IMG/VR virus record: IMGVR_UViG_3300037357_000283
Length of the DNA stretch: 64,000 bases
Source of the DNA: an uncultured virus (IMG/VR IMGVR_UViG_3300037357_000283)
Taxonomy: Duplodnaviria > Heunggongvirae > Uroviricota > Caudoviricetes
Strand: one strand, 5' to 3'
Under the pieces are notes generated by a model that ran no database searches, was not told the DNA's origin, and was given only the letters and a program-made list of their open reading frames with translations. The position numbers and the translations under genes were made by a program. This document shows positions 12,287 through 54,776 of the stretch, piece after piece; within the stretch, counting starts at the first letter, position 1, and every line of letters starts with the position of its first letter.

Positions 12287-12296
12287 GAGCTCGGCC

Positions 12297-12725: not shown

Positions 12726-12737
12726 TTGGAGGCTCTG

Positions 12738-13115
12738 ATGGCTGCATCACCGTTGTTTCAATTCATGGGCCGCGACAGTGGCAACGGTCGCGGCGAGCTT
12801 CATTGGGGACGTGCTGATGAAGACAATGCCCCGTTTCGCGGCAGCCCATTACCGCCGATGCCCGATGAAGAGTATGAGAATCGCGCGGTGAAGGTCTATG
12901 ACTTCAACAACCGGACTTTTAACGTCAACGATCCTGATGACAACCGCGCTTATAGTGAGGTGATGCAGATGGTGACCAATGGCCGGGCCGTGCTTGTTGA
13001 TCGGCAGCGCAAAGAAGAATTTTTTGAGGGCCGGCTATGTGTTTGGATCTATCTCGAGTGGACCGTGCCGTACATGCAAGACGGTAAGCCTATGTTGTCT
13101 CAGGAGTTTACCTAA
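12738..13115 (+). CDS. Hypothetical protein
   Basis: RBS GGAGG; coupled to the next gene (TAATG). Confidence 0.6.
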   Translation: MAASPLFQFMGRDSGNGRGELHWGRADEDNAPFRGSPLPPMPDEEYENRAVKVYDFNNRTFNVNDPDDNRAYSEVMQMVTNGRAVLVDRQRKEEFFEGRLCVWIYLEWTVPYMQDGKPMLSQEFT

Positions 13116-19125: not shown

Positions 19126-20464
19126 CAGGACTTCTGGGTTGAAAACCACGCCCTTTAGGGCGTCTTGACTTTTCTTACAAGGATAACTATATTCTTGTAA
19201 GTGAAAGCGAGATACACATTTCGGGTCTATCCGACTGGTCGCCAAGAGCGACAGCTTGCCAAAGAGTTTGGGTGCGCCAGGCACGCTTACAATTTCGCCT
19301 TGAACCTGCGAACGTCCAGCTTCAAAGACGGAATCACGATCAACTACAACGCCAGCAGCGCCGCGTGGACAAAACACCGAAACGATCCGACGTTTTCTTT
19401 CCTTAAAGAATCTTCCAGCGTTCCCCAGCAGCAGGCATTACGCCACCTTCAGACGGCGTTCAGCAACTTCTTTGCCAAGCGAACGCAGTATCCTAAGTTC
19501 CATTCCAAGCACGGGAAACAGAGTGCAACGTATACCGTCGCCGCGTTCGACTACGACGCCGCAAATAGGAATCTCAGCGTCGCCAAGATAGGTCGCCTCA
19601 ACGTCAAATGGAGCCGCGAGTTCACGAGTTCGCCAAGCACGATCACGATAACCAAGGATTGTGCCGGACGCTACTTCGTGAGTCTTTGCCTGGATGAACC
19701 AGCGAAGGCCGCACTTCCAAAGACGGGGAAGCAAGTCGGGATCGATCTTGGCATCGCGCGGCTGGCAACGCTCTCCACGGGCGAGAGAATAGCCAACCCG
19801 CGACACACGATGCGGCACGCTCGAAAGCTGACTCGATTGCAACGGGTTCTCTCCCGTCGCGTCAAGGGCAGCAATCGGTGGCGGCGTCAAAAGCTCCTGG
19901 TCGCAAAGCATCAGGCTCACATTGCCGATAGCCGCAAGGATTGTCTGAACAAGCTGACTACCGATCTTGTTCGACGGTTCGACGTGCTCGCCATCGAAGA
20001 CTTGAACGTGCGTGGCATGGTAAGGAACCATTGCCTTGCCAAGCACATTTCCTGTGCGAGCTTCGGCATGTTCCGTTCGATGCTGACATACAAGGCTGCG
20101 TGGTACGGGCGTGAACTGCGTGTTGCCGACAGGTTTTTCCCGAGTAGCAAGCGATGCTCCAACTGCGGCCACGTCCACGAAAAGATGCCGCTGGACGTGC
20201 GAGAGTTCACCTGTGAAGAATGTGGAACCGTTCACGACCGGGATGAAAACGCCGCCAAGAACATTTTGAAATTCGCGGGCGCAAGCTCGCTGTCTACCGC
20301 CGGACAGGCGGGAAGTAACGGACGTGGAGCGAGTTTAAGACCAAAGCGGGCTTCAGCCCGTTCTGGCAGTTCGCGTCGAAGCGTCAACCAACCTGCTCTG
20401 GCTCGTGGCACTTAGCATGGGCTACTCAGGAATCCCCGGCCTTTAGGCCGGTGGAGGATGTCAA
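19126..20464 (+). mobile_element. IS200/IS605-family (IS1341-like, no tnpA) element
   Basis: Inserted after TTTAT; subterminal hairpins ACGCCC-TTTA-GGGCGT and CCGGCC-TTTA-GGCCGG; ends TCAA; no target duplication. Confidence 0.85.
19201..20415 (+). CDS. tnpB: RNA-guided endonuclease TnpB
   Basis: FGCARHAYN, GIDLG, IEDLNV, PSSKRCSNCG zinc finger, DRDENAA; RuvC D/E/D intact. Confidence 0.95.
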   Translation: MKARYTFRVYPTGRQERQLAKEFGCARHAYNFALNLRTSSFKDGITINYNASSAAWTKHRNDPTFSFLKESSSVPQQQALRHLQTAFSNFFAKRTQYPKFHSKHGKQSATYTVAAFDYDAANRNLSVAKIGRLNVKWSREFTSSPSTITITKDCAGRYFVSLCLDEPAKAALPKTGKQVGIDLGIARLATLSTGERIANPRHTMRHARKLTRLQRVLSRRVKGSNRWRRQKLLVAKHQAHIADSRKDCLNKLTTDLVRRFDVLAIEDLNVRGMVRNHCLAKHISCASFGMFRSMLTYKAAWYGRELRVADRFFPSSKRCSNCGHVHEKMPLDVREFTCEECGTVHDRDENAAKNILKFAGASSLSTAGQAGSNGRGASLRPKRASARSGSSRRSVNQPALARGT

Positions 20465-40370: not shown

Positions 40371-40443
40371 TTGACTTCAATTAGCCTATCGCATATAAAG
40401 TGAGCCGCCAACTTTGGCGGCTCACTTTGTTTTAGGAGATTTA

Positions 40444-41682
40444 ATGACCAAGACTCCTCGCGAATATGCTCAAGAACGTAATGCAAGAGGTTTGTGTTGT
40501 TCATGCGGTAATCAACATCTACCCGATAAAAGTCGATGCGCTGAGTGTGATGCGAAAGCTAAAGAAAAGTACAGATTAAAGAGAGGCCCGAAAAAAGTCG
40601 TCGAACGTTCAATACGTAAAGAACAGCTCGCTGCAGCCTCGAAGCGTTATTACGAAAATAAAAAGGCTCAAGGACTTTGTCCGACCGCTGGTTGTCATTT
40701 GCCAGCATCTGCAGATTCTATTTACTGTATGTTTCACCTTGAACAGCAACGAACACGTCAGACTCTAAAAGCAGCAGTGAAAGCTGTAGAGAAAACGAAA
40801 GAGATAAAGCAGCAGATTGAGGTCAGGCGATCTGCCGGGCTTTGCGTTGATTGTGAATCAACGGATCTGTTTAATAAATTACGTTGTCGTAATTGCGAGG
40901 CTAACTGGTTGGTTAGGGAGAATAATCTCACGCGATACGCCGCACGGTTGCGAGTTGGATTATGTCAACAATGTGACGCTGTTGTATCCGAGGGGCAAAA
41001 ATATTGTGAGGTTTGCACAGGTAAAGCTACCGAAAGACGCGAGCAACGTGCTGCTGCCGGTTTATGTGTTGTCTGTGGAACAATTCCACCTGCAGCAGGC
41101 AGACGACTTTGTCAGAGGTGTCTCGATCGCGTTAAAGAAGTCTACCGTGAACGGCAGGCCCAGGGGCTATGCGCTCAGTGTGGTAATACCGCAGTTGTAC
41201 ATGGTAACTCGCGATTCCTATGTGAATCTTGCTGCGTTCTTAGCCGTGCGCGTTATCGTAAACGTCACGCTGCGGCTCGCCGGCAGATCCTTGATGCCTA
41301 CGGTAATAAATGTGCCTGTTGTGGCGATCCACGAGAGTGGGGATTACAACTTGACCACGTAAACAATGACGGCAACGTGCATCGGCGACTTCTGGCGGGG
41401 GTTAACAAAAGTTCCGTTACTTATCGTGTATATTCGCAGGTGATTCGCGAGGGTTTTCCCAAGGACAAGTATCAGCTTCTTTGTAGCCAGTGCAACACCG
41501 GCAAAGCCCGTAACAACGGTGTCTGCCCTCACGTCCACGAACGTGCCGTTCTCGGTGGCCGCCTTGCCGTCACCCCTGAAGACTTCGCCGCCGTTGCCGC
41601 CGCTCTTGCCGCTTTGGAGCTCACCGGCGCCCCCGAAGACTTCGCCGGCGCCGTCCCTCCTGTTGCATCTCCCGTCTCCTAA
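40444..41682 (+). CDS. HNH endonuclease with tandem CxxC zinc-finger repeats
   Basis: CACCG...LQLDHVNNDG...LCSQCN; many upstream Cys pairs; AT-richer DNA; RBS AGGAG. Confidence 0.75.
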   Translation: MTKTPREYAQERNARGLCCSCGNQHLPDKSRCAECDAKAKEKYRLKRGPKKVVERSIRKEQLAAASKRYYENKKAQGLCPTAGCHLPASADSIYCMFHLEQQRTRQTLKAAVKAVEKTKEIKQQIEVRRSAGLCVDCESTDLFNKLRCRNCEANWLVRENNLTRYAARLRVGLCQQCDAVVSEGQKYCEVCTGKATERREQRAAAGLCVVCGTIPPAAGRRLCQRCLDRVKEVYRERQAQGLCAQCGNTAVVHGNSRFLCESCCVLSRARYRKRHAAARRQILDAYGNKCACCGDPREWGLQLDHVNNDGNVHRRLLAGVNKSSVTYRVYSQVIREGFPKDKYQLLCSQCNTGKARNNGVCPHVHERAVLGGRLAVTPEDFAAVAAALAALELTGAPEDFAGAVPPVASPVS

Positions 41683-41759
41683 CCGTTATACTCCACACCT
41701 TGGCACGTTCGGTACATCCTTACGTGCATGGCCGACGTGCTCCTACTTCTGGAATCCCT

Positions 41760-41918
41760 ATGGACAAATCACTTTTATTCTGGCTCGTATACGTCATTTC
41801 CGTCATCGTTACCGTGTTTTTGGGCTGGCCGCTCAACCGGACGAGTGGGCAATGGCTGGTAATTCTCCTGCTCCTCGGGATTCTCGGCTGGGGTGTGTTC
41901 GGGCCCGTGGTCAGGTGA
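41760..41918 (+). CDS. Small two-TM membrane protein
   Basis: 52 aa, two hydrophobic helices. Confidence 0.6.
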   Translation: MDKSLLFWLVYVISVIVTVFLGWPLNRTSGQWLVILLLLGILGWGVFGPVVR

Positions 41919-41932
41919 TTTGAAAAGTTTTT

Positions 41933-42109
41933 GGGCTACATCAAGGCCCGATGTGTCCCTTACCGGGACATAACCAGCTGGATAGCTGGCCTTGCCTGCT
42001 TTTTGGTGAGATACGTAGTGTCTCACCCCTGCAGGCACGGATTGATGGTGGTTGATCAACAGGCCGGTGATCAGCAGCCCGTCGCGCCCCTGCGGGTACG
42101 GATTGATGG
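41933..42109 (+). CRISPR. sgRNA-like cassette, copy 3, with repeat-32 nt spacer-repeat mini-array
   Basis: Scaffold to 42048, spacer 42049-42080, degenerate repeat 42081-42109. Confidence 0.65.
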
Positions 42110-42150
42110 TCCTGTTGCATCTCCCGTCTTCTAACCGTTATACTTCATCT

Positions 42151-42239
42151 GGTGGCCATCCATGGACGGTGGCCAAGTCACGGATGACGCCCAATCACGG
42201 ATGATGCGAAGCCGGCCCTATGCCCTGGGGCCGGCTTTT
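42151..42239 (+). ncRNA. CsrB/Rsm-like small RNA (three CANGGANG hairpins)
   Basis: TTGCAT-18-TATACT promoter; CATGGACG and CACGGATG x2 in stem-loops; terminator 42209-42239. Confidence 0.6.
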
Positions 42240-42256
42240 GTATTTCCACAAATACA
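42239..42256. promoter_or_regulatory. Palindrome TGTATTT-N4-AAATACA, copy 6
   Basis: Exact arms. Confidence 0.7.
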
Positions 42257-42361
42257 CCCTATGCGCCTGCCTAAATAAAAGACCGTTTTGCGTCACAATA
42301 GATGTAGGCCATCGTAGCTCTGCGTAGAGCTGGTGACCTGTTTTTAACCTGGAGAACAGCT

Positions 42362-43036
42362 ATGGAAGACACGAATAAGAATACCGGCGGCCGGAACACC
42401 GGCATCCAGAACACTGGCCACTGGAACGCCGGCAGCTGGAACACCGGCAGCCGGAACACCGGCGACTGGAACACCGGCGGCCGGAACACCGGCAGCCGGA
42501 ACACCGGCGACTGGAACACCGGCAGCCAGAACACCGGCTACCAGAACACCGGCGACTGGAACACCGGCGACCATAACACCGGCGACCAGAACACCGGCGA
42601 CTGGAACACCGGCGACCAGAACGCTGGCTTTTTCTGCACGGAAACTCCGTCGCTGAGTTTCTTCGATAAGCCAACTAATTTGACATGGGAGCAGGCAATT
42701 GAGCTGATACCTTATGTCGAATTGTCCATCGGCGCGGTATTTATCCATAGTGACGCCATGACGGATAAAGAGAAGCTCGCGCACCCAGAACATGAAGTCA
42801 TTGGTGGGTACCTGAAGAACTACAACTTAAAACTTCAGGAAGCCTTCCCGTTGGCGTGGAAGAAAATGTCGGATGAAGAAAAGGCCAAGTGGCTGGCGCT
42901 GCCTAATTTCAACGCCGAGAAGTTCCTGAAATGCACCGGTGTCGACGTCCGGCCGCAGAGCAAACCCAAGATAGCGACAGCCAAGGTGCGGTTGTCGGAT
43001 GGTACCGTGGTAGAGGGTGAGGTCGTGGCAGACTGA
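42362..43036 (+). CDS. NTGxx pentapeptide-repeat protein, paralog A
   Basis: 15-nt tandem units; near-identical to 47167-47790. Confidence 0.8.
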   Translation: MEDTNKNTGGRNTGIQNTGHWNAGSWNTGSRNTGDWNTGGRNTGSRNTGDWNTGSQNTGYQNTGDWNTGDHNTGDQNTGDWNTGDQNAGFFCTETPSLSFFDKPTNLTWEQAIELIPYVELSIGAVFIHSDAMTDKEKLAHPEHEVIGGYLKNYNLKLQEAFPLAWKKMSDEEKAKWLALPNFNAEKFLKCTGVDVRPQSKPKIATAKVRLSDGTVVEGEVVAD

Positions 43037-43092
43037 TCAAACTAAAGCCGCCAGCTCTACGTGGGGCTGGCGGCTTTTTACTTGGAGAACCG

Positions 43093-43566
43093 ATGACAAA
43101 TATTCAGTACAAGATTGGTGATGCCACTTTTCCTGATTCGCGCGGGAATAAGATCATCGTCCATGTTTGTAACGACGCTGGTGGTTGGGGGCGTGGTTTT
43201 GTTTTAGCGATTTCAAAACGGTGGCCTCAACCCGAAATGGCCTACCGCCGGTGGTACCGGGAACGGGAGCAAAATAGTTTTTGTCTCGGTGCGGTGCAAT
43301 TCGCTCGGGTTGAATCAGATATTTGGGTAGCCAACATGATCGGGCAGCATGGATTGGCGCGCGAAGCGGATAGGCCACCGATCCGATATGAAGCGGTCGA
43401 GGCTGCGTTGCTACAAGTTGCCGAGAAGGGAATTGAGCTTGCGGCGACCATTCATATGCCGCGGATCGGCTGCGGACTGGCAGGGGGAAAGTGGGGAAAA
43501 ATCGAGCCGATTATCTTGCGTACGTTGTGTGCTAAGGGTGTTGATGTGTCGGTCTACGATCTCTAA
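43093..43566 (+). CDS. Macro domain protein (ADP-ribose hydrolase-like)
   Basis: GDAT, HVCNDAGGWGRGF, MPRIGCGLAGG. Confidence 0.85.
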   Translation: MTNIQYKIGDATFPDSRGNKIIVHVCNDAGGWGRGFVLAISKRWPQPEMAYRRWYREREQNSFCLGAVQFARVESDIWVANMIGQHGLAREADRPPIRYEAVEAALLQVAEKGIELAATIHMPRIGCGLAGGKWGKIEPIILRTLCAKGVDVSVYDL

Positions 43567-43584
43567 CTCAGGAAAGGAAACAGC

Positions 43585-43908
43585 ATGTCTACAACAACTG
43601 CCAGCGATCCGCTGGTTCATTCGCGCTGGGAGCAGATGAAACTTTCCGGCGAGTGCATTTACTTTGCGATTGATAGCGCCTGGGTTTTCCTGGCAGCACC
43701 GGGCGGGCCGAGTGGCCGGGTTTATTTCGATAAACAACGTCCCGTAATAGAGAGAAATCTCTATCACGTGGATCGGCTTTGCGCTGGTGTCTGGCATCAC
43801 ATGTGCTGGGTCAGCGCCGACAACAAAAAGAGTTGTCAGGCACTTATTGCGGTGGTTAAAGAGGATTTCGGCGCCATCGAGCGCCAGATCCGCATTACTG
43901 TCGCGTAA
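43585..43908 (+). CDS. Hypothetical protein
   Basis: RBS AGGA. Confidence 0.55.
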   Translation: MSTTTASDPLVHSRWEQMKLSGECIYFAIDSAWVFLAAPGGPSGRVYFDKQRPVIERNLYHVDRLCAGVWHHMCWVSADNKKSCQALIAVVKEDFGAIERQIRITVA

Positions 43909-43926
43909 ATTTCACTTGGAGAATCT

Positions 43927-44619
43927 ATGGATCTGATCAAGCAAATCAATGAAAACATCGGCGACGTCGCTGATGATATTCTCGAAGAAGTTATGGAGCT
44001 CGTGGATCTCGTGCAATGTCGGTGCCTGCACGAAAAAGATTTGATCGATTTGACCGACGCGATAACAGCGTACAGGACGTCGATGGACATTGAAATGCTG
44101 TCCTTGAACATGGATTTGCAGGATTTCGATGAACGCATTTCCGCTGAAGTCATGCGCCGGCGCAACGCAGCTTATCGGGTTCAAGTCGCTTCGATGGGTG
44201 AGAAATCCGAGGCTACGCTGACCGGCGAGCAACCAGTCGACGCCGCGAAGATTCGTGAAGCAAAGTTCCAGCGCCGGCTGGCCTCGGTGGTGAAACTTGT
44301 AGGTCTTAACACATCCGAGATTATTATTCTTCGGGAGTTGGAGTTATTGTGGCAGGCTCGGCCTCAAGATGCTCAGGCGCGGTTGGACATTTATAAGCTC
44401 ACAATCATCGATTACCGCGAGACTCCCGACGGTAAACCGATACAGCAGAAAATCCACCGGGAGGCGATTGTTCGGGCGGCGGATCCTGTGCAGGCACGCA
44501 GGCTGCTTAGTTCTCAAGATCATCTGTACGCGGCCCTCTGGGACGATATTTACGGAATCGATTGCCGGTTGCTGGCCGCCGCAGTAGACGGCGAGGCTGA
44601 AGTTTTATCGCTCAAATAA
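43927..44619 (+). CDS. Hypothetical protein
   Basis: RBS GGAG; acidic helical N-terminus. Confidence 0.6.
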   Translation: MDLIKQINENIGDVADDILEEVMELVDLVQCRCLHEKDLIDLTDAITAYRTSMDIEMLSLNMDLQDFDERISAEVMRRRNAAYRVQVASMGEKSEATLTGEQPVDAAKIREAKFQRRLASVVKLVGLNTSEIIILRELELLWQARPQDAQARLDIYKLTIIDYRETPDGKPIQQKIHREAIVRAADPVQARRLLSSQDHLYAALWDDIYGIDCRLLAAAVDGEAEVLSLK

Positions 44620-44731
44620 GGGCTTTTCTTCTGGCTGATGGATTTGCCACCGAAGCCGCGTAGAAGGTATACTAAAAACCTTAGCCGCCTGGTGGCAATA
44701 ACGCCGCTGGACCGTAGAACAGGACTACACA

Positions 44732-45127
44732 ATGCCCAACGCTTCACCGCAAATTCCACAGCTGCCTGATCCCAAGACCGCTTACGACCATCTGTTTCAG
44801 ACGGTCCACAGTGGTGCATTCTTCAATCGCCTTGCCCAGCGCGGCATCAACGTGACCTCGCCCAAGCAAGCTGCGGACGCCCTGGCAACCGCCGAGCAGC
44901 TACGTAGTTTGGAAGGTGATCCCCGCTTCAAAGCAGCTAACGATAGTGACCCCTTTGCCCAAGCCAGGGCGGCTTTGGATAAGATGGTTGGCGGACCGGC
45001 ACCCGAGCAGAGTCGCAAGCAGGCGGCGGTGCAGTTGATGAATGACGCAGACATCTACAACAGCATTCTCAGCCTCAAGAGCGCTGAGGCGGCCCGTATC
45101 GCGCAGCAGTTGCAGCCGGTGGCCTGA
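44732..45127 (+). CDS. Putative head protein (KxA-rich)
   Basis: Five KxA motifs; TTGCCA...TATACT promoter upstream. Confidence 0.6.
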   Translation: MPNASPQIPQLPDPKTAYDHLFQTVHSGAFFNRLAQRGINVTSPKQAADALATAEQLRSLEGDPRFKAANDSDPFAQARAALDKMVGGPAPEQSRKQAAVQLMNDADIYNSILSLKSAEAARIAQQLQPVA

Positions 45128-45140
45128 GGTTAATGTTTTT

Positions 45141-45300
45141 GGGCTGCATCAAGGCCCGATGTGTCTCCTACAGAGACATAACCAGCTGGATAGCTGGCCT
45201 TGCCCGTTTTTGGTGAGATACGTAGTGTCTCACCCTCGTGGGCACGGATTGATGGTTCTTTATATACGGTCGTCTTGCCCCTGTGGGCACGGATTGATGG
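45141..45300 (+). CRISPR. sgRNA-like cassette, copy 4, with repeat-16 nt spacer-repeat mini-array
   Basis: Repeat 45227-45255, spacer 45256-45271, repeat 45272-45300. Confidence 0.7.
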
Positions 45301-45326
45301 GCCGGAGTTTTAACTAGGAAATTCTG

Positions 45327-45671
45327 ATGAAAAGTTCACTATATACGGTCGTGCAAAACACATCGGGCGTTGCCATGCGATTTGGGTTTCTGCCGCCACA
45401 TGGACAACTATTGACTCCCGGACAACTGTTCACCGTATTTGGTGACCTCCGTTCGGCGATTATGCGTGGTGCGCGGAACACCAGCCGGCGCGATCATAGT
45501 GCCCTGATTGCTGCTTTGGAGTCGGGGAAGCTGACGATCATCCACACGCCGTCACCGATCATGCGGGATCTGTTCTCTGGTCAGCCCAAGCTCATTCAGC
45601 TGTATAATGGCACACTGAGTCTGGTCAACCCTGGCTGGACAACCAGCACCGAGACCAGCATTCCGGCTTGA
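45327..45671 (+). CDS. Hypothetical (putative virion) protein
   Basis: 114-aa ORF; its 5' end matches the adjacent spacer. Confidence 0.65.
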   Translation: MKSSLYTVVQNTSGVAMRFGFLPPHGQLLTPGQLFTVFGDLRSAIMRGARNTSRRDHSALIAALESGKLTIIHTPSPIMRDLFSGQPKLIQLYNGTLSLVNPGWTTSTETSIPA

Positions 45672-45798
45672 CCGCGCCGGCAACAACTCACGAGCGGCCG
45701 GTGTTTTTGCGTTTTCCACCGGCATTGTTTTCCCCGCACCCGGCTGTCGTCGCCGGGTGCGTTTTTTATTTGCTTTCGTTTGTTGGTAAGCTGCTGGC

Positions 45799-47067
45799 AT
45801 GTCACCAATAATTTCGGCTTTTACGCCGTGTCACGATACCCGCTGGTTGCTGGAAACCTGGCACGGCCTGCAGGTACAGAACTATCCCGACAAGGAATGG
45901 GTCATCCTGCTTAACGGCGCCGCGGTCGATCAAGAGATCCCCGCGGTCATTCGACAGTGTCCCTGGGTGAAGATCTTCACCGCGGCGTCAAGCCCGCCAA
46001 TAACCGGCAGCAGTATTGGGGCTTTGAAGAAAACAACCGTTGCCTGCTGCCAGGGCGATATTTATCTGGAACTCGATGCGGATGACGTTCTTGTTCCGGG
46101 GGCCCTGCCAGCGGTTGCCCGGGCCGCTGCCGAAGGCGGGGAGTTCATCTACAGTGATGCGGCTTGTTTTAATATCAAACCCGGGGGGCAGATTGAGAGC
46201 TGGGCCTACCCAGCCCGCACCGGCTGGGCCGAATACCCTGTGAAAGTTTATGGGCACACGCTTCGGGCTACGGCCTGTTTTCCTGTGACACCGCGCGTGC
46301 TCTGCGAGATTTACTGGGCTCCCGATCATCTCCGGGCCTGGACGCGGGAAGCTTACGAGAAGGTCGGCGGGCACGATGCCAAGCTGGCTGTTGGCGATGA
46401 TCACGACCTTATCTGCCGAACCTACATCGCCGGCCGGAAGTTTCGCCATACCGGCGGTTGTCACTATCTCTACCGTTGGCACGGCAACAATACAGTACCG
46501 AAGCGAGCGGAGATGATTAAAAAAATCCAGACAGCCAATCGGGTGAAGTATCTCGACGGTTTGATTAACTACTGGACCGCCGATCTCGGGCAAGCGCCGT
46601 TGATTCTGCACGTCGAAGCCGCCGCGGGTCGCTGGCGGCCCGCAGCACCCGGTGACCTTCTTGGGCGAACCGGACTGGCGGCTATCTCAGCGGAGAACCT
46701 TCTACAGTTCTGTGCGGGGCCCGATATCCCTGAATTTTTCAATGCCGCCTGGGATGCCTTGTTGCCGGGGGGTTATCTCTCGGTCTCTGTCCCGGTGGGC
46801 CGCTGGGCTGATCAGCACCCCCTGCACCGGACCCGGTTTAATCCCAACAGCTTTCTCTATTACACGGAGCCGGCGTTTGCGGTACAAATCCCGAACCTAC
46901 GCTGCCGGTTTGATCTGATTCAGTCCCGGGTGTTTTTCCCGTCAACAGCAGCCAAGCGGCTGCGGATGCCTGTACTTCAGGTTCATCTGGCAGCGCTGAA
47001 GGGCCAACGCTGGCCGCGAAGCCATTGGCCGCATCAACCGTGGCCCGTCGCGGCGGGTGGTATTTGA
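45799..47067 (+). CDS. GT2 glycosyltransferase fused to a methyltransferase-like C-terminal domain
   Basis: ELDADD, GDDHDL; C-terminal LLPGGYLSVSVP...HPLH. Confidence 0.75.
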   Translation: MSPIISAFTPCHDTRWLLETWHGLQVQNYPDKEWVILLNGAAVDQEIPAVIRQCPWVKIFTAASSPPITGSSIGALKKTTVACCQGDIYLELDADDVLVPGALPAVARAAAEGGEFIYSDAACFNIKPGGQIESWAYPARTGWAEYPVKVYGHTLRATACFPVTPRVLCEIYWAPDHLRAWTREAYEKVGGHDAKLAVGDDHDLICRTYIAGRKFRHTGGCHYLYRWHGNNTVPKRAEMIKKIQTANRVKYLDGLINYWTADLGQAPLILHVEAAAGRWRPAAPGDLLGRTGLAAISAENLLQFCAGPDIPEFFNAAWDALLPGGYLSVSVPVGRWADQHPLHRTRFNPNSFLYYTEPAFAVQIPNLRCRFDLIQSRVFFPSTAAKRLRMPVLQVHLAALKGQRWPRSHWPHQPWPVAAGGI

Positions 47068-47166
47068 TCTCTAATCCCTAAATAAAAGACCGTTTTGCGT
47101 CACAATAGATGTAGGCCATTGTAGCTCTGCGTAGAGCTGGTGACCTGTTTTTAACCTGGAGAACAG

Positions 47167-47790
47167 ATGGAAGACACGAATAAGAACACCGGCTACGGGG
47201 ACACCGGCAGCGGGAACACCGGCAGCTGGAACACCGGCAGCCGGAACACCGGCAGTTGGAACACCGGCCGCCAGAACACCGGCAGCCAGAACACCGGCCA
47301 CAGGAACACCGGCAGCAGCAACACCGGCGACAGGAACACCGGCAGCTGGAACACCGGCAGTTGGAACACCGGCAGCTGGAACACCGGGTTTTTCTGCACA
47401 GAAACTCCTTCGCCGAGCTTCTTCGATAAGCCAACTAATTTGACATGGGAGCAGGCAATTGAGCTGATACCTTATGTCGAATTGACCGTCGGCGCGGTAT
47501 TCGTCTTAAGTTATGAGATGACGGATAACGAGAAGCTCGCGCACCCAGAACACGCAACCATCGGCGGCTATCTGAAGAACTACAACTTAAAACTTCAGGA
47601 GGCCTTCCCGCTGGCTTGGCAGAAAATGTCGGATGAGAAAAAGGCCAAGTGGCTGTCGCTGCCCAACTTCGACGCCGAGAAATTCCTAAAGTGTACCGGC
47701 GTCGACGTCCGGCCGCAGAGCAAACCCAAGATGGCCAGGGTGCGGTTGCCGGATGGCACCGTGGCAGAGTGCGAGGTCGTAGCGGACTGA
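47167..47790 (+). CDS. NTGxx pentapeptide-repeat protein, paralog B
   Basis: Duplicate of 42362-43036 with fewer repeats. Confidence 0.8.
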   Translation: MEDTNKNTGYGDTGSGNTGSWNTGSRNTGSWNTGRQNTGSQNTGHRNTGSSNTGDRNTGSWNTGSWNTGSWNTGFFCTETPSPSFFDKPTNLTWEQAIELIPYVELTVGAVFVLSYEMTDNEKLAHPEHATIGGYLKNYNLKLQEAFPLAWQKMSDEKKAKWLSLPNFDAEKFLKCTGVDVRPQSKPKMARVRLPDGTVAECEVVAD

Positions 47791-47853
47791 TCAAACTAAA
47801 GCCGCCAGCCCTACGTGGGGCTGGCGGCGGAAGAAATAAGGGTGATTTTTACT

Positions 47854-47969
47854 GGGCTACATCAAGGCCCGATGTGTTCCTTACCGGGACATAACCGGCT
47901 GGATAGCTGGCCTTGCCTGCTTTTTGGTGAGATATTCAGTATCTCACCCCTGCGGGCACGGATTGATGG
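47854..47969 (+). ncRNA. sgRNA-like cassette, copy 5
   Basis: Full scaffold ending GGATTGATGG. Confidence 0.75.
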
Positions 47970-48082
47970 GCTTCGCAGTCAAGCTGAGTTTTTGTGTCGA
48001 ATTGAGCGTTCTTCTATACCTCGCGGCGGCTAAATCGGAGCCACCACGGGGTTTCTTGTTTTCCGATACTTGGAGGTGCTAA

Positions 48083-48541
48083 ATGTTTAGCACAGTGTTT
48101 GCGTTTTGTCGTGATTTGTTCGGGCTACTTGTCCGGACGGCTCTGGCGATTGTCGGAGTTGTGGCGATTCTCTTTATGGCGGGCACTCTGGTTATGTGCG
48201 CAAGTACGTTTTTTCTGCGTGCATTTACTTTTTCGTTCGCCGCCGTGCCGTGGCCGTTGGTCAGTTTGGGTAGTATCTTGATCGGAGTTGGCTGGGCAGT
48301 TGGGCTAAGTACCCGCCAACAGACGATTCATTTGGGCGCGGGCCGCTTGGTCCATTTTATGGATCGATTGCTGAATCCTCGCCGCTACTACCGGGTTGAC
48401 CAGATTTGGCGACTGTATTACGAGGAACGCATCAAGCAGTTTCGGCGGCAACCACAACCACGGCCGCAACCACAAATAAATGTAGACGCCGATGCCGATG
48501 ATCGCGCAACTGCTGAGGAGAGTATCGGTCGCCGTATTTAA
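48083..48541 (+). CDS. Membrane protein
   Basis: RBS GGAGG; two hydrophobic segments. Confidence 0.6.
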   Translation: MFSTVFAFCRDLFGLLVRTALAIVGVVAILFMAGTLVMCASTFFLRAFTFSFAAVPWPLVSLGSILIGVGWAVGLSTRQQTIHLGAGRLVHFMDRLLNPRRYYRVDQIWRLYYEERIKQFRRQPQPRPQPQINVDADADDRATAEESIGRRI

Positions 48542-48668
48542 TCGCTTGTGTTCTCCAAGGAGGGGCGGGTGTCCATTCTGGCCCCGCCCCTTTTTTATTT
48601 GCTGTAGGGATTTTCCTACAAACCGCGGAGCCTGCGGCGGTGCTTATCGCAGGCATTAGGGAGTTGGC

Positions 48669-48884
48669 ATGTCCTCTGGTAAAAAGCAGCAGCGTGATGA
48701 TTTTACAATTTGTGGTACACCAACCCGGGCGGAAGTTTTCGTCCGTGGGCGACGCGTAGCGGTCTGTTGTCCTCCGCCAACCGGAGCGATCAAAAGCCCG
48801 TTGATGCGGGAGTTCTTTGAGCAGCTGTATGGGGGTGGACGCGACGTTAGAAAACTAGCTCACCGGGTCGCCAGTAGCGACTGA
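48669..48884 (+). CDS. Hypothetical protein
   Basis: RBS GGGAG; followed by a hairpin. Confidence 0.5.
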   Translation: MSSGKKQQRDDFTICGTPTRAEVFVRGRRVAVCCPPPTGAIKSPLMREFFEQLYGGGRDVRKLAHRVASSD

Positions 48885-48941
48885 TTGTTAAGGGTGCGAA
48901 CGCAGTTGCGTTCGCACCCTTTGTTTTAACACTGGAGAAGC

Positions 48942-49496
48942 ATGAAAAGTACACCAGGGCAACGTTGGCAGGTTCTGTTGGGGGCGTTATTCGTACTGAC
49001 GGATCGCGGGATTCGACAGCTTCGCAATGGACTACAAGACCAGCGCGAGTATTTGGTTAAGCGGAAGTGCGATGTCCAGATGCACTTGTATAATCTCGAG
49101 ACGATTCGTCTCGATGCTTTGGATCTCGAGAAAGAGGTGCTGGCGGCGCGGCAGTTCAAGTTCATTTTTTTAGCGGAACTCAAAGTTCTGCTGGAGGAAA
49201 CGATTAAGGAATGCCAACAGATTCCGCTTAAAAGCGGGAAAATGCTGAATTATCTCTGTCAGCGATATCTCTTGGATATTGCCAAGCTGAAGGCACCGGC
49301 GACAGCAACGGATGTTCCAGCGGCAGTAGAAATTCCATCAATCCGTGCCCGCAGGGGTGAGACACTGAGTATCTCACAAAAAGCAGGCAAGGCCAGCTAT
49401 CCAGCTGGTTATGTCCCGGTAAGGGACACATCGGGCCTTGATGTAGCCCAAGAACAAAACTTATCTGATCCGCAAGATCTTTGCAAGATCGGGTGA
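48942..49496 (+). CDS. Hypothetical protein; 3' part reads through antisense cassette copy 6
   Basis: RBS GGAG. Confidence 0.5.
   Translation: MKSTPGQRWQVLLGALFVLTDRGIRQLRNGLQDQREYLVKRKCDVQMHLYNLETIRLDALDLEKEVLAARQFKFIFLAELKVLLEETIKECQQIPLKSGKMLNYLCQRYLLDIAKLKAPATATDVPAAVEIPSIRARRGETLSISQKAGKASYPAGYVPVRDTSGLDVAQEQNLSDPQDLCKIG
49335..49449 (-). ncRNA. sgRNA-like cassette, copy 6
   Basis: Reverse-complement copy with the same TTGCAA-17-TAAGTT promoter as copy 2. Confidence 0.75.
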
Positions 49497-49586
49497 CAAG
49501 GCCAGCGCATTTTCGAACGTAAAATCCATCGATTGCTACAACGGGTGGCTCGTGGAAGACAAATAACAGCCTAAAAGGAACACTCC

Positions 49587-49775
49587 ATGACAAACGGCGA
49601 ATTGATTGACCGGCTTCTCAAGCTCAACAGACCAACCGGTCAAGCGTTAGTGGAAATCACCGAGCCATACGACGACGATGCACAGACGCTGGTTGAACCA
49701 ATCCAGAGCCTGCGCATCGACGAGAAAACTGGCAACATCATCCTCAGTGCCGTCTCTCATTTTACCACACACTGA
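49587..49775 (+). CDS. Hypothetical protein
   Basis: RBS AAGGA. Confidence 0.5.
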   Translation: MTNGELIDRLLKLNRPTGQALVEITEPYDDDAQTLVEPIQSLRIDEKTGNIILSAVSHFTTH

Positions 49776-49844
49776 CACTGTGAGGATTAGAACTACGAGC
49801 GAACCTACGGCTTATATCCACTCGTCACTAACTAGGAGAACGCT

Positions 49845-50273
49845 GTGGCTGATTATAAAACACTGCTCGATATGCGAAATACGTGCCGGGCTGTTAGCGC
49901 CGGCACCACTCAATGGGGGGCCGACGAACATACCAAAATCAAATGGCTGGCCGGTCAACTTTCTATCCTCGCCGGGCACCTGGCCGATCAAATGATTCCA
50001 GTATCTCCGCAGCCTCCGCAACCGCCCGCAGACGACGACCATGTTGCCAAAGGCTGCATTTCGTTTGCAAGCACGCCACCAACGTATACGGGGAATGATT
50101 CCCTGCAAAACCTATGGCCCCTGCTCGCCGATGCACTACGCTCGATGGACCGTCAAGCCTGGATGGGGCGATTGTGGGCCATCGTTAATCAGGCTCACTC
50201 ATCTGGCTTTTCCGAAGGGATGATTAGCGCCCAAAAGGCAGACGACGAGGCCCGGCCAGGAGACATCCAATAA
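49845..50273 (+). CDS. Hypothetical protein
   Basis: RBS AGGAG, GTG start. Confidence 0.55.
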   Translation: MADYKTLLDMRNTCRAVSAGTTQWGADEHTKIKWLAGQLSILAGHLADQMIPVSPQPPQPPADDDHVAKGCISFASTPPTYTGNDSLQNLWPLLADALRSMDRQAWMGRLWAIVNQAHSSGFSEGMISAQKADDEARPGDIQ

Positions 50274-50311
50274 CCAGCAAATTCGACAAGCACCAACTTA
50301 AGGAGAACTCT

Positions 50312-51549
50312 GTAAACGACCGTCGCCTTAAAGGCGATGGCTTTCAAGATCAAGATGTGTAGCTGAAACCACAACATCCCGTCGAGATTCGCAGTGGTTT
50401 ACAACACCGCCGCCTGCGATATTCAGCGCGCCGACGACATCGGCATGCATCGTACCGCAGGTTGTGCATCGAAATACGTCCCCACTCCGCGTGCCGCGCT
50501 CGCCGCACTTCGGACAGGTTTGGGACGTGTAGGCCGGATTGACGAACTCCACGGCGATTCCGGCGCGAGTGGCCTTGTAGGAAATAAAGGTTTGCAACTG
50601 GCCGAAGGACCAGCCCGACATCATCCGGTTCATGTGGCGATTCCTGATCTTGCATCGTTGACGGATATGGACGAGCTGTTCCAGGCGGATGATACCGCTG
50701 TGTGCCTTAACCGCCTCGCCGACGATGTGTTTGCTCAGGACGTGATTTTCATGATGAATGCGTCGATTCTCATAGCCGGACAGCCGGCGAAGAACCCGCT
50801 TGGCTCCAGCCGTTCCCTTGCTCTGCAAGCTGGCGCGGATGCGAGCCCGATCCTCCTTGAACTTTCGTCGCCGTTGGCCGTCATACAAAGTGCCATGGCT
50901 GGTGGCTGCGGTGTTTCTGATACCAAGATCGACGCCCATTGGCGGCCCGGTGACAGGCTCGGCGTCGGCATCCTCGACAACGATATGCGCAAACCATTGT
51001 GGACCCTTGCGAACAATCGTCGCCGCCGTAGGTTTCTTGCCGGCCAAGGCACGGCGTTGAAAATCTCCAAGCACAAGCGGAACATGGATGCGACCACCCA
51101 TGACGGTGAGCGAAACGGTTTCATCTTTCTCCCGATAATCGAAAATTCGCGCGTCGTAATCAATACTGCTTGGCCGAAACGCGACAGGATTTTGCTTCCG
51201 CTTCTTCGCGGCGGTCATCGCGCCGGCAACGCGGCGAACAGCACGGACGGCAAGGTTCGCGGACAGCTTGAACCGCTCGCGGATCATTCCGTAAGCCAAG
51301 TGGTGGAGTTTGATGTTGTTCGAGACGTTAGCAGGAACAGCAATCGCCAGTGTGGCATTGCAGGCATCGGCAAACGCCGTAGCCGTGGCCGACAGTTGCG
51401 CCGCCATTGTTGGCGTCGGGGCCATCTTGCAGCAAATAGTCCGCTTGCTCATAGTGAATATTGTATCACTACTGAAATGGCGAGTAAACCACGAAAGGCC
51501 GCTGCTTCCTCTGTCGCCTGAAGGCAACAGTCTCCGCAGCGGGAATTTT
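50312..51549 (-). mobile_element. IS200/IS605-family element (no tnpA)
   Basis: Terminal hairpins around tnpB; ends defined by identity with the mini-copy at 52210-52256. Confidence 0.8.
50328..51452 (-). CDS. tnpB: RNA-guided endonuclease TnpB
   Basis: GVDLG, LEQL, YTSQTCPKCG, HADVVGALNI; RuvC D/E/D intact. Confidence 0.9.
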   Translation of the reverse strand: MSKRTICCKMAPTPTMAAQLSATATAFADACNATLAIAVPANVSNNIKLHHLAYGMIRERFKLSANLAVRAVRRVAGAMTAAKKRKQNPVAFRPSSIDYDARIFDYREKDETVSLTVMGGRIHVPLVLGDFQRRALAGKKPTAATIVRKGPQWFAHIVVEDADAEPVTGPPMGVDLGIRNTAATSHGTLYDGQRRRKFKEDRARIRASLQSKGTAGAKRVLRRLSGYENRRIHHENHVLSKHIVGEAVKAHSGIIRLEQLVHIRQRCKIRNRHMNRMMSGWSFGQLQTFISYKATRAGIAVEFVNPAYTSQTCPKCGERGTRSGDVFRCTTCGTMHADVVGALNIAGGGVVNHCESRRDVVVSATHLDLESHRL

Positions 51550-51735
51550 ATGACTTCAATGTGGGTGATCTAGCCAACGAGGACCTGACCCCCATCAACA
51601 AATGCCTTGGCATGACCGGCATCTACATCGAAGCAGTGAACACATTCAGCATGGATACACCCGAGTCAGCTTGGGTGTTCGATACCGTGCTCGCTGACCG
51701 TGATGCGATCACTGCGAAATAGAAAGGAATCAATC

Positions 51736-52260
51736 GTGAAACAAACTATCAAACTTATTGTGCTGGACGGGGGCTCCTCACAAATCATCCGCTACTGCAA
51801 AAACCACTTCGGCCCGACCGATAAGCGTAATCGCGTTGAAGACATGCGAAAGCTAGTTGCCAACCGCAACAATGGCATTACCGAGTGGATCAATGATTAT
51901 GACATGATGCTCTCCCTCTTGGCTGTGTTGCGTGAAGTGGAGAAACTGCCCATCGAAAGCCACACGATGAGCTACTTCATGTCGGTCATCCTTTTCGGCG
52001 GTCAATATGGCCGCCCCATCCTGTCCGAGAAATATAAGGGGGCATTCCCGCATTTCGTCGATGCGGTGTACGACATCCTCGCGAGCCTCCAGATCCGACA
52101 GCCCATTCCCGACACCAATGAACTGCAAGATTTGATCGTGCTGGCCCCGCTCGATGAAGAGCTTGGCAAGGCGCTGGGGTTCGATCCTGCGATAGGAGCC
52201 ACATGCAAGGTAAACGACCGTCGCCTGAAGGCAACAGTCTCCGCAGCGGGAATTTTATGA
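51736..52260 (+). CDS. Hypothetical protein
   Basis: RBS AAGGA, GTG start; C-terminus supplied by the mini-IS. Confidence 0.55.
   Translation: MKQTIKLIVLDGGSSQIIRYCKNHFGPTDKRNRVEDMRKLVANRNNGITEWINDYDMMLSLLAVLREVEKLPIESHTMSYFMSVILFGGQYGRPILSEKYKGAFPHFVDAVYDILASLQIRQPIPDTNELQDLIVLAPLDEELGKALGFDPAIGATCKVNDRRLKATVSAAGIL
52210..52256 (-). mobile_element. 47-bp mini-IS (fused right and left ends of the 50312-51549 element)
   Basis: GTAAACGACCGTCGCCT joined to GAAGGCAACAGTCTCCGCAGCGGGAATTTT. Confidence 0.8.
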
Positions 52261-52757
52261 TCATTCCGTACGAACTGACCGACCAATGCGACCAACCCAA
52301 CGACAAGCCCACACTGCCGATCAAGATCGTCGGCAACGGCGGCCAGATCCTCATCGGATTTCAAGGGTACGGTGAGCATGGCGCGGATGTCGAACACGCT
52401 ACCCCGGTTCTGATTGAAGTGTGGGACGGCAAGCTCCGCGTCATCATCTGGTCTGACGTAAACCAGGAAGACCCGACACACACGATAGAGCTGGAGGCAG
52501 CGAGAGAGAACAACCGTCAGAACCTCGATTGGGCCGAGACACACTCTGCCGCTGCAAAGAAGCTCGTGGAAGAAAATATTTGGAATAGTTATTGGCTGTT
52601 TCCGCGTAGCGATTGGCAGTACGAGACTGCCAATGGTGATACCAGCCTCGGCTACTGGAACTGGGTTGACAACCAGATTGAAAGCCATTCCACAGATTCG
52701 ATTGAAGATCGGAGTGATCTCGAATCCCGTATGGAGACGTTCTCCGAGAACGAATAA
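52257..52757 (+). CDS. Hypothetical protein
   Basis: ORF; alternative start at 52203. Confidence 0.6.
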   Translation: MIIPYELTDQCDQPNDKPTLPIKIVGNGGQILIGFQGYGEHGADVEHATPVLIEVWDGKLRVIIWSDVNQEDPTHTIELEAARENNRQNLDWAETHSAAAKKLVEENIWNSYWLFPRSDWQYETANGDTSLGYWNWVDNQIESHSTDSIEDRSDLESRMETFSENE

Positions 52758-52774
52758 CCCGAAGTTGTGTTTTT

Positions 52775-52890
52775 GGGCTACATCAAGGCCCGATGTGTCT
52801 CCTACAGAGACATAACCAGCTGGATAGCTGGCTTTGCCTGCTTTTTGGCGAGATATTCAGTGTCTCACCCCTGCGGGCGTGGATTGATGG
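52775..52890 (+). ncRNA. sgRNA-like cassette, copy 7
   Basis: Full scaffold followed by a hairpin and T-tract. Confidence 0.75.
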
Positions 52891-52953
52891 AAAACCCGGG
52901 TCGCCCCCGGTTTTCTTTAGCGGTTAGCCGTCTGCTACAATGGACGCAGCGAT

Positions 52954-53898
52954 GTGATTGAACCTGGAGCGCCATTGGAACTCGACGTTATTGAACCCGG
53001 CATTTCCGTCAACCGCGATGGTTGCCGGATCCTCAGCCATATCAGCGCCTTCGTCGCAACTGAGGGTGTGCCCTCGGTCCTGCAATTCACCTTTCGCGAG
53101 CGACAGGGCAATCCCCTGGATTTGACCAGCCCAATTGCCGGTGATCTTGCCGGTGGGGACAGCATGGTTAGCCTTACCCTGGACACTCCACCTGATGACA
53201 CGGTGCTGTTGGCGATTCGCGAAGCGACGCTGCACATGAATCAGGGTATCCCGTTGCTGGTTGCTGGAACGTTCATCGATCGCAGCAGTGGCGTTGTCCA
53301 GGCTGGACTTCCTGCGCCTATTTATTCGCAGAGTGGGCTATACACTCTGAGCTGGGGTTATTCCCGCGACGGGAAGATTCGTGTTGCCCGCGATGCCCTG
53401 CTCAGTGTCGAGCGCTCTTTGTTTGGTTTTACGGCTCCTGGGGCGTTTCCCCACGGCACGGGCGCCCCAACCATTGCCGAGCTGCGTAATCAGCTGATCG
53501 ACAGTGATCGCGCGGATAATCTTTTGCTTAATGACGTCGAGTTCAGTGATGAACAGATTCTTTTCGCCTTACTTCGCCCGTTACAGGACTTCGAATCGGC
53601 GCCGCCGCCGATCAGTCAGCATTTTGATACGCGGAATTTTCCTTGGCGCAATGAGTGGCTCGATGCTGCCGCGGGATATCTCCTGCGCTCGGCGGCGGAC
53701 AATTACCGGCGTAACCGTTTAGCTATCGTTGGTGGCGGTAAACAGTTGGATGTCTTCAACCGCGAGCCCGAATACATGAAGGCGGCGCAGATGCGGATAC
53801 AGGAATGGAAGTCTTTTGTCGTCGGTAAGAAAGTGCAGCTAAACGCCGCAGCGTGTTTCGGCTCATTTGGTGTTGGTGGCTACGGAGGACGCTGGTGA
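52954..53898 (+). CDS. Putative head-tail adaptor/neck protein
   Basis: Position; ELR...D...NLLL...EFSDEQI helical domain. Confidence 0.5.
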   Translation: MIEPGAPLELDVIEPGISVNRDGCRILSHISAFVATEGVPSVLQFTFRERQGNPLDLTSPIAGDLAGGDSMVSLTLDTPPDDTVLLAIREATLHMNQGIPLLVAGTFIDRSSGVVQAGLPAPIYSQSGLYTLSWGYSRDGKIRVARDALLSVERSLFGFTAPGAFPHGTGAPTIAELRNQLIDSDRADNLLLNDVEFSDEQILFALLRPLQDFESAPPPISQHFDTRNFPWRNEWLDAAAGYLLRSAADNYRRNRLAIVGGGKQLDVFNREPEYMKAAQMRIQEWKSFVVGKKVQLNAAACFGSFGVGGYGGRW

Positions 53899-54776
53899 GC
53901 GACCTTTCAACGTCAGCGTGCCGTCCCTGCCCTGCGGCATGTGAGAGTGTTTTTGCGCGGGTGGTGATTTCTTATCTATTGGGCGGTCAGGGGAGCACGG
54001 TAGCCTGGACGTTGCAACCAAGTTTCACGCTCCCCCGGCCGTATGAATTTACGTTGCAAGTCAGTCAGGCAAACAACCCCAACGCGGATGATTGGGAGCC
54101 GGTTGGGCTGCCCGTTGAAAATGTGTTCACAGCGGTTGATCCAGTACAGCGCTTGTTCGGACTTAATCGCTGGTTGTTCTACCGCGTTAAGCTGGTTGCC
54201 GACGGGCAGACATTTTACTCTGATCCAACCGGACTGGAAGGAACGCTAAGCCGCTGGGATTGGAATCAAGCGCGAATGGCTATGCGGCAAGAGATTATTG
54301 CCATGAAAAATGGTGATGGTGAGCTGGGTTATCTACTCAAACGGCGGATCGCCGGCCCGCGCTGCCCGCGCTGTACGGATTCCCTGACTGGTGATGTAAC
54401 TGATGGCCGCTGCCCGATCTGTTCTGGTACGGGTTTCACCTGTGGCTATTTCTTCCCGATTGCCTGCGTCTGGGCGGACATTTCACCTAAAGCCCGTCAC
54501 CTGACGCTGGACCCCAACCGCGGCACGGTGGGTGACACGGTAGTTTCGGCGCGAATCCTTAATCCCTGGATGCTTTCGGAAGAGGATATCTTTGTCAGTA
54601 AGGTGTCTGATGACCGTTATTATATTCACCGTGTGGCTGACACTTATACGTTTCGTGGTGTTCCCATCGCTGCCAATGTTGAGCTGCGACTGGCTCCGGT
54701 CAGTGACTGTGCTTATACCTTCGTGATTCCCGAGCAGGCGTTGACACCGCTGGCAATGGCTACGATGTTGAGGTAA
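53895..54776 (+). CDS. Putative neck/head-closure protein with Zn finger
   Basis: CPRC...CPICSGTGF; position. Confidence 0.5.
   Translation: MSDLSTSACRPCPAACESVFARVVISYLLGGQGSTVAWTLQPSFTLPRPYEFTLQVSQANNPNADDWEPVGLPVENVFTAVDPVQRLFGLNRWLFYRVKLVADGQTFYSDPTGLEGTLSRWDWNQARMAMRQEIIAMKNGDGELGYLLKRRIAGPRCPRCTDSLTGDVTDGRCPICSGTGFTCGYFFPIACVWADISPKARHLTLDPNRGTVGDTVVSARILNPWMLSEEDIFVSKVSDDRYYIHRVADTYTFRGVPIAANVELRLAPVSDCAYTFVIPEQALTPLAMATMLR

Follow-up and report, generated by a model that had tools for sequence, protein, structure and literature searches.

A mini-array-like unit in a large soil phage carries a short spacer that differs from the adjacent core gene by two silent changes

A 64 kb stretch of DNA (hereafter the window) from an uncultured large soil phage (IMG/VR record IMGVR_UViG_3300037357_000283), part of a source contig ~9.5 kb longer, was found to carry an array-like unit between the stop codon of a gene at 44732–45127 and the ATG of the next gene at 45327. 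The order in this interval is a structured RNA element that includes repeat 1, an insert of TTCTTTATATACGGT(C), repeat 2, and 26 nucleotides (nt) that include a ribosome-binding site. The repeat-spacer-repeat anatomy, together with inserts found at the same repeat in metagenomes, indicates a mini-array of the CRISPR type with no cas genes in the window, and we would class it as a mini-array carried by a phage, with a repeat and leader that form a new family. The spacer nearly reproduces the beginning of the adjacent gene, and it is quite possible, by analogy with mini-arrays in other viruses, that the guide spares its carrier and recognises the allele of close relatives, the best of the readings considered, though one that is put forward tentatively. 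The features of the unit are as follows.

45136–45225, plus strand: leader part of the structured RNA element (hairpins H1–H3 and the 5′ arm of H4; covariance model 45136–45255, 135 bits)
45226–45255, plus strand: repeat 1, 30 nt, ending in GGATTGATGG; 3′ arm of H4 and an 8-nt single-stranded tail
45256–45270, plus strand: spacer, 15 nt (16 nt, to 45271, if the repeat is 29 nt), corresponding to codons 3–8 of the next gene with 2 silent differences
45271–45300, plus strand: repeat 2, terminal, unlike repeat 1 at 5 of 30 positions, all in the first 12 nt
45327–45671, plus strand: adjacent gene, 114 amino acids (aa), no family; core gene beside the capsid gene in 5 of 5 related phages
45334–45352, plus strand: protospacer-like site in the gene, 17 of 19 positions identical to 45255–45273, with AAAAG 5′ of the site

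The gene at 45327 opens with ATG AAA AGT TCA CTA TAT ACG GTC GTG. An initial annotation, made from the sequence alone, had paired TTCTTTATATACGGTC at 45256–45271 with TTCACTATATACGGTC at 45335–45350 at 14 of 16 positions, and this match was confirmed, as were the synonymous nature of both mismatches (TCA/TCT, Ser; CTA/TTA, Leu), their location at spacer positions 4–5 (45338/45339 in the gene) and the AAAAG sequence 5′ of the gene copy (45330–45334). The match proved longer than had been claimed, as 45255–45273 and 45334–45352 differ at two of 19 positions and include 13 consecutive exact bases. It starts exactly at the repeat end, and the target is 79 nt from the spacer. The 19-mer has a single other match in the 64 kb at ≤3 mismatches, and none of 100 shuffles gave any. 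The description of the sequence as a spacer also held, as it sits between repeats at 45226–45255 and 45271–45300. With one spacer between two repeats in a viral genome and no cas genes in 64 kb, the unit has the make-up of a mini-array, but the associated cas genes of a CRISPR array in the strict sense were not found in the window. The count of ten post-repeat sequences was likewise reproduced, the 18-nt repeat core matching ten times in the window where 0.10 matches were expected.

Silent changes are possible at 15 of 48 single substitutions in the 16 nt, at 91 of 1080 pairs and at 3 of 135 adjacent pairs. The silence of the two mismatches is therefore moderately unusual, though not decisive, and two changes that are both adjacent and silent suggest a coding copy as the place where the versions diverged.

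The adjacent gene has a homologue close to the capsid gene in all five related phages, and the closest homologue of its product among 5.8 billion protein clusters is 54% identical. The 15 homologues found (≤54% identical) start with a conserved CLYSTV motif, whereas the window phage has SLYTVV, and the spacer read in frame also encodes SLYTVV. As the spacer shares these phage-specific residues, its source is the resident gene or a very close allele, and not the known relatives. The Leu codon is CTT in 5 of 5 relatives, and the CTA of the resident gene keeps that first base. To judge from these sequences the gene looks to have kept the likely older base and the TTA of the spacer to be derived, a weak indication as the relatives are distant.

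The leader and repeat 1 form one copy of a 121-nt element that is 94% conserved and of which 7 of the 10 repeat-core matches are the 3′ end. A covariance model built from the seven copies recovered exactly those seven in the window and nothing weaker. In the consensus fold, three 5′ hairpins are followed by a long fourth helix in which the leader is paired to nearly the whole first repeat, leaving AUUGAUGG single-stranded at the end of repeat 1, and 98.9% of 277 cells are paired. Two pairs are altered on both sides and nine on one side, with G-U or Watson-Crick pairing kept on the plus strand. The observed covariation score was reached by 3 of 500 shuffles, pairing fell to 25–44% once helix partners were slid, and the copy at 45136 gave a single-sequence fold z of −4.5. 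The G-U pattern identifies the plus strand as the RNA strand, and hence places the variable sequence 3′ of the repeat. Rfam 15 gave no match at gathering scores across the whole window and none at E up to 10 in 45050–45400. A protein-coding reading of the element was rejected, as two frames are open yet 3 of 7 copies have 1-nt indels.

Repeats occur singly in four of the seven units; in the other three a second repeat follows after 2, 31 or 15 nt. The two second repeats that have diverged carry, on a by-eye reading, the same changes at positions 1 and 7. Several units are followed by a terminator-like hairpin. No sigma-70-like promoter was called at the five units within 41500–53200, and the phage carries its own polymerase. 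The other six units are as follows.

3499–3618, plus strand: single-repeat unit (covariance model)
10516–10668, plus strand: element with a second, identical repeat after only 2 nt
41928–42109, plus strand: element, 31-nt spacer (42049–42079) and terminal repeat (42080–42109)
47849–47969, plus strand: single-repeat unit, terminator-like hairpin at 48037–48055
49335–49454, minus strand: single-repeat unit, the sole minus-strand copy
52770–52890, plus strand: single-repeat unit, terminator-like hairpin directly 3′ (52896–52910), just before the core gene at 52954

The minus-strand element at 49335–49454 lies inside the 3′ part of a 184-codon plus-strand open reading frame (ORF; 48942–49496), the end of which is probably not native. 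The elements with upstream sequences 10458–10515 and 49455–49512 (minus strand) have ~58 nt more in common, in which lie a hairpin (GATCTT-GCA-AAGATC) and a promoter-like pair (TTGCAA-17 nt-TAAGTT). To the left of the element at 41928, the flank (41919–41931, TGATTTGAAAAGTT) resembles the sequence just left of the protospacer-like site (45325–45336, TGATGAAAAGTT), with the 9-mer TGAAAAGTT common to both; the likeness could be accidental, or it could reflect an exchange of flanks between elements.

The window was found in four peat metagenome runs, the best of which contains 0.93 of sampled words, and no RNA run was among the sequencing runs listed; the data were contigs only, aligned to 40500–54000. 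Bins bearing the element reached 4–16 times the flanking depth in run X1 (e.g. 161.8 vs ~10). At least 28 insert strings were present at repeat joints, and among the 12 listed, 11 lay between a repeat end and a repeat start. The listed inter-repeat strings were 12–40 letters long, most of them 26–37 (12, 14 and 18 also occur), with a depth of 8–14 compared with 8–12 for the phage. These repeat-spacer-repeat joints indicate that the repeat is used in CRISPR fashion. Within the window, the inter-repeat inserts are 2, 15 and 31 nt. The inserts in the peat samples may come from the rest of the phage, its kin or a host.

Virus-borne mini-arrays offer the closest precedent. In the available part of Medvedeva et al. 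2019 (PMC6858448), mini-array spacers are described that match closely related viruses, the orthologous sites of the carrier having point mutations or deletions, and an independent survey is cited there (reference 58) in which the spacers of mini-arrays were directed at genes adjacent to the array in related viruses. A review (PMC11656645) agrees with that report on viral mini-arrays. As described in the same part of PMC6858448, such arrays have 1–2 spacers, a leader, no nearby cas genes and an intergenic location, the target is close to the array, and the carrier locus differs by point mutations, all of which is seen at 45136. Unlike the arrays described there, the structured 90-nt leader pairs with the first repeat, seven units are dispersed over 64 kb, the spacer is only 15–16 nt and the carrier is a large tailed phage rather than an archaeal portoglobovirus.

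The spacer is a copy of that part of the neighbouring core gene which encodes its conserved N-terminal motif, taken either from the phage's own gene or from a near-identical allele. Protospacer hot spots around arrays have been documented (PMC5737086), and thus a known route to a nearby spacer source exists. On the mini-array precedent, the unit would be transcribed and processed, and its RNA would be taken up by an RNA-guided effector, the gene for which would be located either in another part of the phage genome or in the host. With its protospacer-adjacent motif (PAM) presumably on the 5′ side, this effector would recognise and perhaps cleave the allele of very close relatives. The carrier allele would be spared by the two mismatches beside the repeat-proximal end, and the outcome would be interviral competition as in virus-borne mini-arrays. 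As the mismatches are silent, adjacent and repeat-proximal in a conserved core-gene motif, this anti-sibling model is favoured over simple decay. The proposal of the initial annotation, that the guide is directed at the allele of a related phage, is partly supported, by the near copy, the silent changes, the phage-specific residues and the mini-array precedent, but an allele with TCT TTA was not recovered.

Several results weigh against anti-sibling targeting. No spacer-matching allele was found in relatives, peat contigs or protein clusters: the DNA of the five IMG/VR relatives gave at best 13 of 16 positions, elsewhere in the locus; the closest protein is the one at 54% identity; and no variant at 45338/45339 was listed for the peat contigs of the four runs. 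No cas gene or other effector was detected by Pfam, PHROGs, PADLOC or NCBIfam in the 64-kb window, which is the part covered of the genome and of a source contig ~9.5 kb longer, and large ORFs inspected for Cas12-like features or family matches showed none and look structural. The only RNA-guided nucleases in the window are two TnpB proteins (19201–20415 and 50328–51527), and none of the seven copies of the element found by the covariance model is at a tnpB 3′ end, nor was any likeness of the tnpB 3′ regions to the element seen by eye. The element and repeat were absent from the five related phages and from IMG/VR and the GTDB representatives as far as these were scanned. None of six peat-sample inserts matched the window at ≤3 mismatches, the window's other true spacer, at 42049–42079, has no significant match, and it could be a host rather than the phage that carries the long arrays of the samples. 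Finally, the spacer at 45256 is half the usual length of the inserts seen with the repeat in the samples. The short spacer, missing effector and missing target allele leave only modest confidence in the model.

A second match to a post-repeat sequence also bears on this point. It follows the terminal repeat of the unit at 41928 and consists of two copies.

41658–41695, plus strand: last 8 codons, stop codon and 13 further nt of an HNH endonuclease gene; upstream copy of a 38-nt duplication
42110–42147, plus strand: sequence directly after the terminal repeat, 36 of 38 positions identical to 41658–41695

The duplication scored 33, compared with a null maximum of 13 in shuffled controls. It begins exactly at the repeat end and flanks a 52-codon membrane-like gene and the mini-array. 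Its 5′ flank is GTCCC, unlike the AAAAG of the site in the gene at 45327, and one of the two differences alters the last codon (Ser to Phe). As the resident copy does not differ from it over the first 20 nt, the sequence used as a guide would hit the carrier. From its sequence it looks like an insertion or recombination scar; candidate origins are Campbell-type insertion, target duplication and a recombination scar. With a different 5′ flank and self-targeting, it indicates that at least some post-repeat matches are rearrangement scars, a further point against the anti-sibling reading. A comparison of all ten post-repeat sequences for a shared target-adjacent motif (TAM) yielded only these two clear matches, with flanks AAAAG and GTCCC. 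The idea of a single TAM-dependent nuclease with self-immunity thus fails for the two taken together, as the flanks differ and the 38-nt copy is self-identical over 20 nt. The other eight post-repeat sequences gave no significant match in the window. For the post-repeat sequence at 47970, a likeness to the upstream gene (26 of 35 and 16 of 18 positions) did not rise above window-wide shuffled controls and is a hint only.

The match at 45256 could be of the same kind, an inert scar in which a self-derived spacer was truncated and mutated, or in which a local rearrangement at the repeat boundary left a remnant with no present function. The insert of 15–16 nt, compared with mostly 26–37 nt elsewhere, fits this explanation, as do the unit with only 2 nt between its repeats, the 38-nt duplication (42110–42147 vs 41658–41695, 36 of 38), which shares this exact start at a repeat end, the status of arrays as hot spots for nearby self spacers (PMC5737086) and the lack of a known target allele. 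However, had the changes arisen in the non-coding copy, only coincidence would account for their silence (3 of 135 adjacent pairs, 91 of 1080 pairs of any kind), and the leader and repeat 1 are intact, as is repeat 2 over its last 18 nt. An inert scar is considered unlikely, although it is the next most probable reading.

The units might instead yield decoy or hijacker RNAs (Racr or Cracr type) that soak up or redirect host Cas proteins, the near-self spacer being incidental. Solitary phage repeats act as RNA anti-CRISPRs in a dose-dependent manner (Camara-Wilpert et al. 2023, PMC10651486). Like those units, 4 of the 7 here are single CRISPR-like repeats located away from cas genes in what look like independent small transcription units, several of them followed by terminator-like hairpins, and the 4–16-fold depth of element-bearing bins would fit dose-dependent inhibition (PMC10651486). 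Unlike the solitary repeat units of that report, the repeat here is fused to a conserved, masking, structured 5′ extension, and the unit at 45136 has a spacer. In a preprint seen in part, phage RNAs resembling CRISPR RNA (crRNA) with short spacers redirect host Cas proteins (bioRxiv 10.1101/2024.10.29.618823). The short or partly matching spacers in phage-borne array-like units described in that portion of the preprint are a point of likeness, but the targets given there are host cas or toxin promoters, whereas here the sole match is to the phage's own neighbouring gene, with repeat-proximal mismatches.

A pattern derived from the window repeat found a further solitary repeat of the same build in each of five apparently interrelated IMG/VR phage contigs (L141–L145). 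In these, the repeat (at about 6001 or 2246–2802) has its own internal hairpin, lies directly 3′ of a promoter (TTGACA-17 nt-TATACT), and a terminator comes ~18 nt after it, the arrangement of a textbook solitary repeat unit. The window repeat and L141–L145 share TGTCTCACCC, GGG and GGATTGA, letters that were imposed by the search pattern, the leading T excepted. The likeness to promoter-driven solitary repeats, which would favour decoy RNAs, is thus a lead and not proof of kinship. The build common to both is one that we take to be typical of subtype I-C repeats.

Against decoy RNAs, pairing with the unit's own leader takes up almost all of the first repeat, and in type VI arrays, according to the part of Migur et al. 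2026 (PMC13187072) available, a leader-repeat hairpin masks the first repeat and such pairing blocks Cas binding. The leader RNA pairs with the first repeat of the array in both cases. However, the systems in that part of the report are Cas13 systems, whereas here the leader has three further hairpins and is multiplied across the genome. Decoy RNAs also leave the unique, silently recoded copy of the neighbouring gene unexplained. This alternative is accordingly regarded as distinctly unlikely.

A further possibility, suggested in the initial annotation, is an RNA-guided homing cassette, in which the guide would direct a cut beside the cassette in co-infecting relatives and repair would copy the cassette together with the immune allele. 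Applied to all dispersed units, they would be self-propagating programmable homing cassettes, each with a guide against its own flank as found in sibling phages; the DNA of a sibling would be cut next to the site, be it empty or differing, and repair would draw on the carrier, so that the cassette and linked immune allele would spread. This extension to the whole set of units is improbable in our view.

The target lies 79 nt from the spacer, which would suit homing, as would the placement of the elements at the edges of lineage-specific islands between core genes. The distance from the capsid gene to the gene at 45327 is 4.96 kb in the window compared with 0.55 kb in one relative (G004), and from that gene to the next shared gene it is 7.3 kb compared with 3.4 kb. 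The two islands contain 5 of the 7 elements, and two elements (c45128 and c52762) directly precede the next core gene. Cutting within an essential gene of a co-infecting relative, adjacent to the selfish locus and giving exclusion and co-conversion, is described in the available parts of reports on phage homing endonucleases and a jumbo-phage intron endonuclease (PMC2330249, PMC11620839). Those systems, however, are protein-guided, whereas cutting here is only hypothesised.

The order of scaffold then guide also resembles that of TnpB guide RNAs. As with TnpB omega RNA in the part of PMC8612924 available, a scaffold of ~120 nt is followed by a 3′ guide of ~16 nt, and the window has two tnpB genes. 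Unlike omega RNA as described there, the element neither overlaps nor adjoins the tnpB 3′ ends, the extra repeats and inserts of ~30 nt are CRISPR-like and no common TAM was found here. One TnpB insertion sequence (IS) of the contig (50312–51650; tnpB at 50328–51527, minus strand) is present in some peat-run contigs and precisely absent from others in the same samples. A 629-nt contig in X1 fuses 50311 to 51651, with an identical joint in X2, and this copy is an IS insertion polymorphism within the phage population. No contig skipping an element was listed for the four peat runs. The two clear post-repeat matches lack a common 5′ flank (AAAAG vs GTCCC), the resident copy at 41658 matches its supposed guide over the first 20 nt and would be cut, and a nuclease linked to the element was not found. 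A homing function for the unit at 45136 is therefore speculative and improbable. In a literature search joining mini-arrays and phage homing, none of the matches listed combined both, which leaves absence from print unproven.

Least probable is a regulatory guide, comparable to CreR, TldR and crRNA-like RNAs, in which a short spacer would let an effector bind the resident gene start uncut and tune its expression: the guide is short, 13 contiguous bases match the resident gene start and the unit runs directly into the gene at 45327 with no terminator-like hairpin between, so that it would be co-transcribed with the gene, but the location of the guide 3′ of the repeat puts the mismatches at positions 4–5, where known 5′-PAM effectors need pairing, and the guide is in the mRNA sense, which makes pairing with the mRNA impossible. 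The seed pairing of crRNA-like regulatory RNAs is likewise lacking, the 13-nt exact run being distal.

If anti-sibling targeting is correct, the use of mini-arrays by one virus against another, so far a matter of prophages and small archaeal viruses, would extend to a large soil phage, and would represent natural allele-specific targeting between near-identical genomes. Unusual in the present case are the structured leader RNA paired with the first repeat, the many dispersed units and a guide that differs from an essential gene of the carrier by silent changes only. The unit is moreover a concrete case in which to ask why viral mini-arrays lie next to their targets, whether through local spacer uptake or homing-like spread; were homing correct, it would explain the published but unexplained closeness of these targets to their arrays.

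The sources examined for relatives of the repeat and element gave little further information. Two-repeat and single-repeat core patterns had no matches in IMG/VR and none in the GTDB representatives, and the covariance model found nothing in the five related phage records or in 11 array loci. A blastn search of 45100–45700 against GenBank phages gave no match, and an 18-mer from the leader had no match in IMG/VR. Five matches to this 18-mer in JGI metagenome contigs were all due to chance, the element being absent. A three-fold ATTGATGG pattern occurred at no fewer than 122 loci (at least 122), and among the 121 examined the closest repeat differs at 11 of 29 positions. As the repeat and leader match nothing in the searched collections, the effector reading them may be of an undescribed kind.

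One locus from these searches (L048, a Phycisphaerales metagenome-assembled genome) has an array of 36-nt repeats near 10001–10150 beside Cas4, Cas1 and a 789-aa Cas12-like protein (10699–13065, minus strand), for which no NCBIfam subtype cut-off was reached. The L048 array was rejected as a member of the same repeat family, as its repeat continues past GATGG, and its Cas12 has no counterpart in the window beyond the TnpB zinc-finger region.

The remainder of the window has the content expected of a phage, including an HK97-type capsid gene, a ribonucleotide reductase gene, the two TnpB genes and two multisubunit RNA polymerase genes, one of them with an intein. The viral context is also backed by the five IMG/VR relatives, in which the capsid protein is 60–62% identical to that of the window and two of which are rated complete, at 195 and 226 kb. 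The intein is in an RNA polymerase beta-prime-like gene (22376–28153) and has a Hint domain and a LAGLIDADG endonuclease. The tnpB gene at 19201–20415, located between the multisubunit RNA polymerase genes, is of the canonical IS200/IS605 type and encodes 404 aa (364 bits to NF038281).

Directly 3′ of the capsid gene, 40414–41682 encodes a protein of 422 aa that has many zinc-ribbon modules (CxxC) and, at its C-terminus, an HNH-like motif; the protein is likely a free-standing homing endonuclease. It has a homologue in one relative (L129) and no match in another (L130). A module of ~800 nt, made up of a pentapeptide-repeat gene with a promoter-like region and a terminator, is duplicated (42270–43074 and 47077–47828, 86–99% identity); one copy is 3′ of the mini-array at 41928 and the other is 5′ of an element. 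A tRNA-Arg called by ARAGORN at 42450–42536 (minus strand) falls within the repetitive part of the pentapeptide-repeat gene and is probably spurious. Six intergenic copies (5037, 11829, 22342, 30806, 38189 and 54976) of a 21-nt hairpin motif, TGTATTT-4 nt-AAATACA, may be phage terminators or promoters.

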